Shown piece by piece: positions 11,101 to 17,780 of a stretch of 35,741 bases of DNA. The notes below the pieces were generated by a model. The model was not told where the DNA came from, ran no database searches, and saw only the letters and a program-made list of their open reading frames with translations. This stretch comes from Deltaproteobacteria bacterium (GTDB taxonomy: Bacteria > UBA10199 > 2-02-FULL-44-16): contig JACQOX010000113.1 in the NCBI GenBank assembly GCA_016202335.1, positions 1 through 35,741 of the forward strand. The letters run 5' to 3'. The first letter of the stretch is position 1, and each line of letters starts with the position of its first letter. A program made the translations under genes and the position numbers.

Positions 11101-14100
11101 ATGACAGAAAAAATCATACCCCTTGATCTGGCCTATCGCTTACAGCGACGCGGTGAGAAGGACATCGATGAAAACATCGATCCACTCTCTCATGGAGCAA
11201 GGGAGTGCGAAGAAAAATTCCCATTTGCAGCTTCCCTTTCGCTCGTCATCGCGGGTGAGAGCGCGAAACTTCTTTGTTCTGATAGTCATGGACAGAGCCT
11301 GCCGCTTCGGGAAGTGACCGTGAGCCGATCCCTTGCAGCGCGTCTGCAAGCTGCCGATGCAGAAGAGGTTGCAGATGTGGTGCGGACGGCAATGCAGTAT
11401 CCAGCCGCAAAAGTGGCGATGGCCAAGATCAAAAAGAAACTTCCGATTTCCCTCTCTGAATTAAGTGTGGTCACGAGTCTCGCTCGGGAAAAGGAACCGG
11501 GAGTCGACGAATTGCTGGAGGAGCGCCAGAGCATGGCGCAGCTCTTGGGGCGCAAGGAAATAGGCCGCTTGACGTATCAAGACATCATGGCGCTTCGAGG
11601 GGTTTTTCGCCAATTGCAACATTATTGGCCTCATGAATTCCCGCGCCTCCTGATGGAGGCCTACCGCACCGCGGTCCAGCTCACGCCAGCTCCGTCCAAA
11701 AAACGCTACGAAGAATTGAGTTATAGGGATCAGGAACAGGACCCCATCATCGTTGGGCGCCAGGTGACGCGGGCGAGCGCTGCGCTCATGTTGGAGCACC
11801 TTTCCGAGGAGTACGAGCCACACCTTGCGGCTTTCTTTTTGTCCGAGGTGCTTCAAAAGCCACATCCTGAAACCTGCGAAACGATCGAAAAATTTTTAAA
11901 AAATTACGATCGCCTCCCGATACAGATGCGTACTGCCTGCGATGCTTTTTTAAAAAAGAAATTTGACGTCTATGTCGCAGGAGATTCCAATCTCACCTTT
12001 TTTGGAGCGGAGACTGCTTATGCCCGTCTGTTGCTCTTTGTGGCGCGGCGCTATGGCCGTGAAGATGCTCGGGAAGCCTTTGAAAGCTTGATGTACGAAG
12101 AGCTTGCCTTGGGACGCCACGATGCCTTGAATTTATACCTCGAAGAGTATGTCGAAAAAGATGGCAACCTCCAAGCGGTTGCACAAATCAAACGCATTCT
12201 GATGGGGAAGATCGAGCAGTTATCTCCGCAGGCGCGCGTGCATACGCTCTACGCCATTCTCGATCGCGATAAATCGTTCCGCATCTTTGAACCCTTTATT
12301 CGCGGCAAAGAAATGCTTTCCGCCGAAAAAGCAGAGAAGCCAAAAGGCTTCAACCTCCCACAGCTGATGATTGATTTTGCGCCGCCAACAGGAGAAATTT
12401 TTACTCCCCTTGGAAGTGAGGAATCCGCGGACCAAATGTTTTATGATCGCTGCATAGCAGCGCTTCTGAAACGGTCGTGCTTTGCTGGAGTTCAGGCCCA
12501 TCTCGACTATCACTACGACCGCAAATTCAGCGATTCTCCCGTCTATCCCTATTACACGCTCATTGAAGCGCTGAAATATCGAGAGATGCATCCCTACCTT
12601 AAAGCCCATGTGGATCGAGGAGGCCCGCACTTGGGTTTTTATGTTTTAGAAGCGGCACTCGAGGGCGCTCTTCGAAGACGAGTGGACATGTCGGATTCTC
12701 CTCCTCCTTCTTTTTTTCCATCTCTTAAAGGCTATTCCGCTATTTCGGATTTCATTCCGCTTATTCAAAAAAGTTCCCTGGCTTCGATTCAACGACACAT
12801 GGAGGCCGAGGCAGATGTTCGCTATGGTTCTCGACCTTTTGTCGATCGCTTTGATCGCGCGATGAAGGTTTTTCAGAGGGCGTTTTACGAAGACTTTAAA
12901 GAGGCTCCGGATACCATTACGCGTGGATTGCATCATCCAAACGTATCCTTCCGCCACAGCCACGTGACGTTCTGGGGACATGATTTTCCCATCGGGCTTA
13001 CGGAAACAGATGTGCGGGATCCAGCCAATCACCACCTTGCTTTCCTTTATGATCACCTCAAAGATCTTGATCTGTCCTATCTCACCGAGCTTGCCATGGC
13101 GGTGCAAAATCAAATCACCGATGACGGTCAACGTGAGAAGGACATGGCCAAGCTCGCTGAAGATAGCGGCAAATCACTGCCGGCATTGCTGACGCAGATG
13201 CATAATCAGACGATCGCCGCTGCCTATGATGGTTTTTATCAGTATATGGAAGGGAAAGAGATTTCCTGTGTGGAATATCCCCTTGGGTCGCAACCATCTT
13301 TTGAATCCGCGGAATACGAGATACGGGATTCATTGAAAGAGGTAGGAAGAAGCCTGCGAGCAGCGTTAAGTCGTAGCGATGAAGCTTCGCGCGAATCGCT
13401 TGGGCGCGATGTCGCGGTGTTCCTGTCGATGCTTTCCAAAAATGCAAAGCGCGACACCAATCTTATTGGACCGACGGTGCATCACATCAGAAGCTTTGCC
13501 TTTATTCCGGAAACAGAATCGCAGGCCGTGGAAACACTGATACAGCTTGCTATTCCGGGCCAAGCAGCAGGGCTCGAAGCTTTAGAAGCGCTTGTGGTGA
13601 TTGATAATGATAAAGAGGTATCTCCCGCAAGCAAAGCGCGGATCCGGCGATTTTTTGCCGGCGTGGTCTGTTCAGCCCTCGAAAAACCTTTGTGCGATGA
13701 GGCGTCCCAAGAAGAGTGGCATGCGCGAAAACGAAAGGTACTGCGTAAGCTTCTTTCCCATGGAAACGCGGCGGCGTATCAGGCGTTTCGGGATTCATTT
13801 TTAAGCGATGTTCGAAGTGTGGCAGCGCAGATGGCGATTGAAGACGCAGACAGCGAGGACCTTCGGGAGCGACATGCTCTCCTGCAACAGGAGTTGAGTG
13901 GCATCGCCCTGGAAGCAGCTATGGGGGCTGGAGGTGGAAAGTTGGCCCAGGCCATAGCCCGGGATATGTCTCATTTATTTCAGAGCGAAGGTGAAGCGAT
14001 GGATGGCATTCTCGCGGGGGCGAAGAAAAGCGGCCTCTTTGATTTTCTGCCCGGCAACGCGACACGCGATCTTGCGCTCAGCCTCGGCCTTCAAAAGATG

Positions 14101-14322
14101 ACACAGTTCGCTGAGGAAAGTGATCAATACTACGCGATGCTCTCTTTGCTGGCGCAATCCAACATCCCTTCTCTGTCGGGAAAAGCCCGACTGGCGATGA
14201 TGCGGTTAAGCCACGACACTGAAACCCGGCAGCAGATCTTTGCGACCTTTGCCCAAAATGCCCGCTCCTTTGTGGAAGCACCCCAGAGAAATCAGTCCCA
14301 GCAAGATGATGTGCCATTCTAA
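11101..14322 (+). CDS. Large hypothetical protein (1073 aa), predominantly helical-looking, no recognisable domain
   Basis: Uninterrupted 3.2-kb ORF starting at ATG 11101. There is no SD, so it may be leaderless. No signal peptide. Rich in L, A, E and R. Confidence 0.8.
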   Translation: MTEKIIPLDLAYRLQRRGEKDIDENIDPLSHGARECEEKFPFAASLSLVIAGESAKLLCSDSHGQSLPLREVTVSRSLAARLQAADAEEVADVVRTAMQYPAAKVAMAKIKKKLPISLSELSVVTSLAREKEPGVDELLEERQSMAQLLGRKEIGRLTYQDIMALRGVFRQLQHYWPHEFPRLLMEAYRTAVQLTPAPSKKRYEELSYRDQEQDPIIVGRQVTRASAALMLEHLSEEYEPHLAAFFLSEVLQKPHPETCETIEKFLKNYDRLPIQMRTACDAFLKKKFDVYVAGDSNLTFFGAETAYARLLLFVARRYGREDAREAFESLMYEELALGRHDALNLYLEEYVEKDGNLQAVAQIKRILMGKIEQLSPQARVHTLYAILDRDKSFRIFEPFIRGKEMLSAEKAEKPKGFNLPQLMIDFAPPTGEIFTPLGSEESADQMFYDRCIAALLKRSCFAGVQAHLDYHYDRKFSDSPVYPYYTLIEALKYREMHPYLKAHVDRGGPHLGFYVLEAALEGALRRRVDMSDSPPPSFFPSLKGYSAISDFIPLIQKSSLASIQRHMEAEADVRYGSRPFVDRFDRAMKVFQRAFYEDFKEAPDTITRGLHHPNVSFRHSHVTFWGHDFPIGLTETDVRDPANHHLAFLYDHLKDLDLSYLTELAMAVQNQITDDGQREKDMAKLAEDSGKSLPALLTQMHNQTIAAAYDGFYQYMEGKEISCVEYPLGSQPSFESAEYEIRDSLKEVGRSLRAALSRSDEASRESLGRDVAVFLSMLSKNAKRDTNLIGPTVHHIRSFAFIPETESQAVETLIQLAIPGQAAGLEALEALVVIDNDKEVSPASKARIRRFFAGVVCSALEKPLCDEASQEEWHARKRKVLRKLLSHGNAAAYQAFRDSFLSDVRSVAAQMAIEDADSEDLRERHALLQQELSGIALEAAMGAGGGKLAQAIARDMSHLFQSEGEAMDGILAGAKKSGLFDFLPGNATRDLALSLGLQKMTQFAEESDQYYAMLSLLAQSNIPSLSGKARLAMMRLSHDTETRQQIFATFAQNARSFVEAPQRNQSQQDDVPF

Positions 14323-16523: not shown

Positions 16524-16535
16524 AAGGAGCTTATA

Positions 16536-17780
16536 ATGGCAGCCGTTTCATCAAAGCTCGTCGATGTTTTTATCAAGACATTTCAGTTGAGAGATGAAGG
16601 TCAAGATCAGCGCTATCAATTTCAATTGATGAAACAAATAAAGGAAACGGGTTTTGTGACGGAAGCCTTGGCTGCTCATTTAGACCAACTCGATGGGAAG
16701 CCTAACGATGGATTTACTCGGAAAGAGATTGAACTTTTTTTAGCCACGGAAGGACTCAAAGGGCTTTCCCGATTTTATCCGCTCCGGGATTTTTTTTGGA
16801 ATCCGCGTTCATCGAGGATTGAAGTGGGTAAAGCCTCGCGTGACGATCGAAAGCTGGTGACTCATGATAGTCCACAGGTTCAACAGATCCTCCGTGTGGC
16901 GGGACTTCCACAGAACGTGCTGAAAAATATGAACGTCATGGCGGTCCAGTATGTTCCAGGGAAACCCATTATTCTTGTCCATGAAGATGATTCTCACGGC
17001 GATGCAGAAATAGAGCTCATCAAACGCGATGTTTCGCACCAGTTTATGCAGAGTCCATTGTCTGCGCATCCTGTTTTTATTGAGCTTCCCGGTGCTCCAG
17101 AAATGATTCCTTCGAAAGAGAATGATTGGAAAGCTATTCAAACAATTCTCCGAGATGATGAGTTGATGTCTCTTTCCGTTGATGATCCAAATTTTGGAGA
17201 CAAGGTTGTTCGTATCGCCGGCGGTATTGGTGCAACGCAACTCATGCATCGATTACCAGCACTTCAAGCTTTGAAGAAAGCTTTGGGGCATACTCCCATT
17301 TCATATGCTGAGATGAAAAAAAGGTATGGCAAAGAAAAGGTGATACGTGAGTTGTTGGATCAAATGGATGCGACATTCGCTTTCGAATTCTTATATGGAG
17401 ATCGAGCGGTATTGTTGAACGTTGAATCAGCCCATCCTCTTATCGTCAAAAAGAAAAGTGAGCATGAGCGCATCAATACACCTGTTCCAGACGAAGCTCG
17501 TGCCGCAAATACGAGGTTCAATCATGCGATAGTTGATCTTGGTGTCCAACCTTCTGCCCAGGATTATGCCGTCATAAATCAAAGTGCCGACAAACGCACA
17601 AAGAGATGGGCCGAACGTTTAGTGGGATTTCCAAAAGATAATCCCGAGCTCTTTCCGAAAGGGAAACCTGCGGTGATCTTTTTTTCAGGCGGTTCTGCAC
17701 ACATGCCGCTTTTGACAGAAGAATTGAAAAAAGCGGGGGACTCGTATCTCTTTTTGAGAAAGAAACCGTCAGACGTTTAG
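16536..17780 (+). CDS. Hypothetical protein (414 aa)
   Basis: ATG at 16536 is preceded by AAGGAG (16524-16529), 12 nt after the previous stop. No recognisable domain. GC is low (hand count 23/60 for each of the lines starting at 16261 and 16321, in the adjacent upstream gene). Confidence 0.8.
   Translation: MAAVSSKLVDVFIKTFQLRDEGQDQRYQFQLMKQIKETGFVTEALAAHLDQLDGKPNDGFTRKEIELFLATEGLKGLSRFYPLRDFFWNPRSSRIEVGKASRDDRKLVTHDSPQVQQILRVAGLPQNVLKNMNVMAVQYVPGKPIILVHEDDSHGDAEIELIKRDVSHQFMQSPLSAHPVFIELPGAPEMIPSKENDWKAIQTILRDDELMSLSVDDPNFGDKVVRIAGGIGATQLMHRLPALQALKKALGHTPISYAEMKKRYGKEKVIRELLDQMDATFAFEFLYGDRAVLLNVESAHPLIVKKKSEHERINTPVPDEARAANTRFNHAIVDLGVQPSAQDYAVINQSADKRTKRWAERLVGFPKDNPELFPKGKPAVIFFSGGSAHMPLLTEELKKAGDSYLFLRKKPSDV

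Follow-up and report, generated by a model that had tools for sequence, protein, structure and literature searches.

Flagellar class III genes and the late genes of Chlamydia are sigma-28 regulons tied to type III export. Here, we studied a block of four genes (genes 1 to 4) from a genome of the barely known phylum UBA10199 and compared it with regulons of this kind. The host genome (Deltaproteobacteria bacterium, GCA_016202335.1; G000 in our sample) comprises 1.65 Mb and is 81% complete, and the window analyzed is a 35,741-nucleotide (nt) stretch of one of its contigs (JACQOX010000113.1; C65). An earlier reading from the letters alone, the original prediction, had described the block as a cassette of four genes wedged between pcd and lat and corresponding to no known system. 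The best reading of the block, in our analysis, is that members of a sigma-28-type regulon, which spans the phylum and is linked to type III secretion, have recently come to lie side by side at this locus. We lean toward seeing the block as a tandem array specific to this lineage, whose genes belong to this one large regulon and evolve independently, and not as a dedicated multi-protein system.

Distribution and genomic setting of the four genes

The four gene families were traced through a phylum sample of 93 genomes (a single class, with the host genome counted) and through every retrievable homologue context. They were distributed very differently, with the gene 1 family in two genomes, gene 2 in one, gene 3 in 22 and gene 4 in four. 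The original prediction had treated the genes as one cassette and proposed conserved synteny in related genomes as a check. When this check was run, the four genes never co-occurred outside the host, and no two of the families were adjacent in any other context; the homologues were solitary, usually with a promoter of their own. In G038, which carries both the gene 1 and the gene 3 families, the two lie on separate contigs.

The gene 1 family was present only in the host and G038, and an exhaustive HMMER search of 1.84 billion representative proteins returned five relatives. These relatives are solitary genes in their contexts, and the same promoter type precedes the homologue in G038 and another on a groundwater-type metagenome contig. 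The gene 3 family, defined by its N-terminal 245 residues, is sometimes found in tandem; the copies whose context was retrieved stand alone beside housekeeping or unrelated genes, and for 12 of 21 copies the promoter is found no more than 60 nt from the start. Gene 3 represents a core family of the regulon across the phylum. Besides its four phylum genomes, host included, the gene 4 family was found in several metagenome contigs, where it stands alone with a TM2-domain gene on one side and a HemN-like gene on the other. In G058, the promoter lies 31 nt before the gene 4 homologue. Genes 1 and 4 are both rare members of the regulon.

The position of the block also points to an insertion. In the closest complete relative (G003, same family, 99% complete; L074), the genes pcd, lat and gcdH follow one another without interruption on a single strand, and we therefore conclude that the block was inserted here. 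In the host, the ancestral gcdH-lat-pcd lysine-catabolism operon (17817-22907 in the window) is broken twice by plus-strand units bearing the promoter. In G001 (L071), the pcd-lat gap holds other genes, including a different 736-amino-acid (aa) orphan with the promoter. This gap looks like a recurrent landing site. Moreover, the GC fractions of gene 3 (0.445) and gene 4 (0.448) fall at about the 2nd percentile of host genes, while those of gene 1 (0.517) and gene 2 (0.502) are typical for the host; given that genes 3 and 4 are atypical in composition and genes 1 and 2 are not, the array is probably composite.

A sigma-28-type regulon and a type III secretion cluster

We located a sigma-28-type promoter directly upstream of gene 1, whose -10 box, GCCGATAA, ends 7 nt before the ATG. 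This box is identical to the -10 consensus of sigma-28, in which the last A occupies position -8 (PMC12784957). On a weight matrix trained on 53 sites, the copy before gene 1 scored 30.7, where true sites score 30 to 41, and the view that the block is driven by a shared motif was upheld. Since the -10 box lies only 7 nt 5' of the ATG, the gene 1 mRNA is probably leaderless or nearly so. In the -35 region, CGCAAC followed by a T-tract was present in 53 of 53 training sites, in place of the TAAA-type -35 element of sigma-28 promoters.

The pattern GCAAC-N15-17-CGATAA occurs 69 times in the host genome against 3 times for the reversed control, and it was found in all 93 genomes of the sample, at 10-115 copies each against 0-6 for the control. 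The -10 box differs by lineage (CCGATAA, GCGATAA, ACGATAA or TCGATAA). The regulon promoter is GCAAC, a T-rich spacer and (G/A/T)CGATAA, and it is present in every genome of this small uncultured phylum. With a relaxed pattern, the host genome gave 73 matches, about 60 of which stand directly 5' of the start of an open reading frame (ORF). Nine of them lie 7-9 nt from an ATG, on contigs that include C20, C24, C33, C65, C75, C97, C150 and C168, and the spacing suggests that nine or more regulon units may make leaderless mRNAs from the sigma-28-type promoter.

Among ten regulon products scanned, seven had no Pfam domain, and of the other three, one is a subtilase and the remaining two matched PP2C and HATPase weakly. 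At most one charged residue in positions 2-21 was seen in 49% of regulon products compared with 10% of other ORFs (p ~1e-5). About half of the regulon products open with 20-30 near-uncharged residues rich in I, L, P, S, T and V; examples are C45:12413, C71:2251, C157:1789, C189:2289 and, in the window, 29715-31895. These N-termini are not Sec-like and may constitute a shared export signal.

A copy of the motif also lies upstream of an operon on contig C143, whose products are an orphan, a TPR chaperone-like protein of 158 aa, an SctJ-like lipoprotein, another two orphans and a sigma factor that is cut short after its N-terminal half. The remainder of this sigma factor is encoded at the end of contig C9, and FliG-like, FliH/SctL, FliI/SctN and FliM-like genes follow it; C143 and C9 are probably neighbours that make up a single type III secretion cluster. 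Both halves of the sigma factor (C143:10599-11158 and C9:7349-7696) matched FliA/WhiG models best, with 85.6 and 49.8 bits against a cut-off of 189.6 that is set for the whole protein. The export gate scored above the curated cut-off for SctV and below that for FlhA. A flagellar regulon was considered and rejected, because neither flagellin nor rod or hook domains were found in the host genome, and the operon is a type III secretion operon of the non-flagellar type. We also rejected a reading of the host as an environmental chlamydia, since the match to a nucleotide transporter was weak and the phylum comprises only 93 species. A literature search returned nothing on a type III system in UBA10199.

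Features of the four genes and their products

The four packed same-strand ORFs, the 177-nt spacer, the ATGA overlap, the AAGGAG site and the upstream motif were all found as originally described (Table 1). We take the genes to be real, given that genes 1, 3 and 4 have homologues with conserved residues and two clear paralogues exist for gene 2. Existing annotation of the contig has shorter versions of gene 3 (373 aa, with the EF-hands omitted) and gene 4 (318 aa); the long ORFs are favoured, since the homologue alignments are conserved from the first residues. The Pfam and NCBIfam models matched gene 3 alone, all with tetratricopeptide repeats (TPRs), and Pfam, NCBIfam and PADLOC scans were empty for genes 1, 2 and 4, in keeping with the earlier description of gene 3 as the only one with a recognisable domain and of the other three as orphans.

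Table 1. Positions of the four genes and their associated features in the window
Feature	Position	Strand	Basis or remark
Aldehyde dehydrogenase (left flank)	9482-11014	-	
Sigma-28-type promoter CGCAACCTTTTCTCGCTTTTGCCGATAA	11067-11094	+	CGCAAC-N14-GCCGATAA; weight-matrix score 30.7
-10 box GCCGATAA	11087-11094	+	
Gene 1	11101-14322	+	1073-aa ORF
Spacer between genes 1 and 2	14323-14499	+	177 nt; terminator-like hairpin not found
Gene 2	14500-15132	+	210-aa ORF; GTG start without ribosome-binding site; start uncertain
Gly-rich bilobed hydrophobic stretch, gene 2 residues 127-168	14878-15003	+	Hydropathy; conserved in paralogues
ATGA, stop of gene 2 overlapping start of gene 3	15129-15132	+	
Gene 3 (product P0003)	15129-16523	+	464-aa ORF
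EF-hand loops of gene 3, DLDGDGKIAKNE and DLNKDGNIGDRRD	15219-15302	+	Sequence; conserved in family
Cys165-His191-Asp207 core of gene 3	15621-15749	+	Alignment columns and model
AAGGAG ribosome-binding site of gene 4	16524-16529	+	Within 12-nt gap, 6 nt 5' of ATG
Gene 4	16536-17780	+	414-aa ORF
Small membrane ORF (minus strand) and class-III aminotransferase (right flank)	17817-19590		

Neither a terminator-like hairpin nor an additional copy of the motif was found between genes 1 and 4. An internal promoter had been proposed at 14485-14510, where GAAC-N14-ACCGATGC is indeed present; with a weight-matrix score of -25.6 against 30-41 for true sites, it bears no statistical resemblance to the motif and does not rise above noise, and we rejected it as a motif copy. 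Given that no terminator-like site and no further motif separate the genes, read-through is the simplest model, and the four genes are probably co-transcribed. The gene 1 promoter would give an mRNA with no leader or almost none, genes 2 to 4, which have no promoter of their own here, would be expressed by read-through from it, and the ATGA coupling of genes 2 and 3 and the strong ribosome-binding site of gene 4 would assist their expression.

The reading of gene 3 as an EF-hand/transglutaminase-like/TPR protein was borne out by family conservation, by an AlphaFold model and by the Pfam matches of its relatives. The product comprises an EF-hand pair, a transglutaminase-like core of the Transglut_core2/SirB1 type and about six TPRs. 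The loop DLDGDGKIAKNE (residues 31-42) meets the canonical 12-residue EF-hand pattern DxDxDGxIxxxE, and EF-hand Pfam models matched 4 of 13 relatives (best E 2e-7), with P0003 itself below threshold. Similarly, Transglut_core2 matched the N-domains of 4 of the 13 relatives (best E 1.7e-5), while P0003 reached 14.8 bits, under the cut-off of 23.5. In the family, C165 and H191 are near-invariant, and N205 and D207 are invariant. The model, built from a 14-sequence alignment, reached a predicted local distance difference test (pLDDT) score of 93.6 and a predicted template modelling (pTM) score of 0.87, and it places Cys165 at the opening of a helix (165-178) and His191 and Asp207 on strands 191-197 and 203-207. 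The modelled Cys-His-Asp layout is that of the papain/transglutaminase core. The TPR part matched TPR_9 with an E value of 5.9e-23, and Foldseek with the full-length model returned TPR proteins for all matches, which swamped the search for transglutaminase folds. The LcrH/SycD class II chaperone model TIGR02552 gave 67.3 bits, below its cut-off of 104.8, and the PADLOC defence models gave generic TPR matches for gene 3 only and nothing else among the four. Gene 3 most likely encodes a Ca2+-binding cysteine enzyme of the transglutaminase fold (a protease, deamidase or cross-linker) with a TPR arm that would bind a substrate or partner.

The gene 3 family has expanded in some genomes, with two copies in G018:C85 and three in G020:C100, in tandem on one contig each, and two copies on two contigs in G080. 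Among these expanded copies the C-terminal length varies, and the products range from 266 to 739 aa.

In gene 1, no domain, signal peptide or membrane segment was found, and there was no match in a PDB profile search, in Pfam or in PADLOC; a word-indexed protein search returned only gene 1 itself. Residues ~330-610 form a conserved core, and the protein ends in a PF tail that two relatives share. A 4549-aa giant from the representative library (P0012) has eleven separate stretches that match residues 145-189 of gene 1, and this short segment may serve elsewhere as a repeat module.

The host genome carries two clear paralogues of gene 2, on C95 (258 aa) and C139 (255 aa), and no relatives were found in the 92 other phylum genomes by single-sequence or profile searches. 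The Gly-rich stretch of gene 2 peaks at 1.5-1.7 on the Kyte-Doolittle scale, which is borderline for a membrane segment. Both paralogues have a genuine promoter of their own 37-38 nt 5' of the start together with a ribosome-binding site, and gene 2 lacks the first ~30-55 residues that are present in them. Gene 2 is a shortened copy, possibly in decay, from a family of small hydrophobic-hairpin proteins that is specific to this genome. In its frame, the spacer contains an ATG at 14350, preceded by a GAGGG ribosome-binding site and opening with MSLLHPFMVPTRT, and this frame meets stops at TAA 14389 and TGA 14473. Read through from 14350, the product would have 260 aa against 258 and 255 aa for the paralogues. 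The spacer may be a relic of a longer gene 2 N-terminus; two stops in 50 codons are the chance expectation, and the alignment is not significant.

The gene 4 family has the invariant residues E150-D151-x2-H154, E183, W198, Y287-G288, R354...W358 and G385-G386-x2-H389. These acidic and His residues suggest that gene 4 may encode a metal-dependent enzyme. The AlphaFold model of gene 4 was weak (pLDDT 65.6), and this model gave no Foldseek match; no PDB profile match was found, four members had no Pfam match, and a profile search of the genome contigs with the gene 4 alignment found nothing. A TIKI/TraB/ChaN/erythromycin-esterase (EreA)-like hydrolase, suggested by the motifs ExxxH, RxxxW and GGxxH, was considered as a candidate and was unsupported by Pfam, PDB or Foldseek matches or by the weak model. 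Upstream of the gene 4 homologue in G001 (L005 8640-8900 / L010 9850-10130), palindromes of the form gtcattcc-gcgaaagc-ggaatc are repeated between a promoter-like site and the gene. They look like repetitive extragenic palindromic (REP)-type repeats that the gene callers translated as an N-terminal extension.

Alternative explanations and comparison with known systems

The same strand, the tight spacing, the ATGA overlap, the single canonical promoter and the failure to find a terminator between the genes would all suit a new four-component complex, with gene 1 as the scaffold, gene 2 as the membrane anchor, gene 3 as a Ca2+-regulated transglutaminase-like enzyme and gene 4 as its partner enzyme. 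However, such a complex seems very unlikely to us, given that no two of the families were adjacent elsewhere in the contexts examined, where their members are solitary with their own promoters, that their distributions diverge (2, 1, 22 and 4 of 93 genomes), and that genes 3 and 4 differ in composition from genes 1 and 2. We rate as quite unlikely a recently transferred island, made up of genes 3 and 4 or of the whole block, whose presence is incidental and in which gene 2 is a pseudogene remnant. It would account for the low GC of genes 3 and 4, the insertion in a conserved operon and the state of gene 2 (truncated, with a GTG start lacking a ribosome-binding site and in-frame stops upstream), but no integrase, tRNA or repeat boundary was seen in a survey of ORFs and Pfam matches. 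Moreover, the gene 3 and gene 4 families are native to the phylum and linked to the regulon, so any transfer would have been within the phylum, and this explanation overlaps the reading as an array of regulon members rather than excluding it.

Genes 2 and 3 might also represent a type III translocator and its class II (TPR) chaperone, in which case gene 3 would keep the hairpin protein soluble until export. We consider this scarcely probable. A chaperone of this class has about 160 aa, whereas gene 3 encodes 464 aa with an enzyme-like domain, and the secretion operon already has a TPR protein of 158 aa. Across 22 genomes, members of the gene 3 family stand alone and have no gene 2-like neighbour, neither gene 2 paralogue has a plus-strand ORF directly downstream, and gene 2 is without the N-terminal segment of its paralogues. 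These points outweigh, in our view, the translational coupling through ATGA, the hydrophobic hairpin of gene 2, the sub-threshold LcrH/SycD match of the gene 3 TPRs (67.3 bits, cut-off 104.8) and the type III system in the genome.

Several observations weigh against the reading as an array of members of a secretion-linked regulon, which we nevertheless prefer. Co-transcription and the leaderless start are inferred from sequence, and the link between the regulon and secretion draws on one operon and the location of the sigma factor gene; since the motif is in every phylum genome, this link has no contrast of presence and absence to draw on. None of the four block proteins has the uncharged N-terminus, theirs being charged or structured, so this feature lends no support to their export via the secretion system. 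A conserved cassette may exist in unsampled relatives, the genome being 81% complete and the sample 93 genomes, and tight packing and ATGA coupling would also fit a recent functional partnership between genes 2 and 3.

On the preferred reading, all four products would act, as secreted or accessory factors, in a cell state switched on together with the secretion apparatus. A bolder version, which we regard as unlikely, holds that a flagellar sigma-28 circuit was repurposed for a large arsenal of fast-evolving proteins delivered via a non-flagellar type III system. Genes 1 to 4 would then be effectors, gene 3 a transglutaminase-fold enzyme activated by the Ca2+ it encounters once outside the bacterium or within the cell of a host or prey, and genes 1 and 4 the founders of new effector families. 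Taken by itself, the cassette is no new system; its value lies in the regulon context. The block exemplifies how a secretion-linked regulon grows in a barely known phylum, with promoter-bearing orphans dropped into housekeeping operons, and the tie to the regulon gives three unnamed families (gene 1, gene 4 and the EF-hand/transglutaminase-like/TPR family of gene 3) a testable biological setting.

Individual products of the block can also be compared with described proteins. The products of gene 2 and its paralogues resemble chlamydial Inc proteins and type III translocators: they are small, carry one two-lobed hydrophobic stretch of about 40 residues and come from a genome that has a type III system. 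In contrast to those proteins, with which gene 2 shares no sequence similarity, its stretch is Gly-rich and only borderline hydrophobic, and it is without the N-terminal segment of its paralogues. Gene 3 resembles the SirB1/UPF0162 proteins, in which Transglut_core2 is followed by TPR_9, in having a Cys-His-Asp core and then TPRs. It differs from them in its additional N-terminal EF-hand pair and extra helical region, in its score under the Pfam threshold (14.8 against 23.5 bits) and in its place in a sigma-28-type regulon.

The regulon itself is closest to the late-gene regulons of sigma-28 (FliA/WhiG). It departs from them in that the -35 element is GCAAC with a T-tract and not of the TAAA type, no flagellin or rod or hook genes were found, the units number at least ~60 and are mostly orphans, and many of them appear to be leaderless. 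What it shares with the sigma-28 late-gene regulons is the same -10 box, GCCGATAA, a putative FliA/WhiG-family sigma factor gene inside the secretion cluster, and dispersed units under one promoter.

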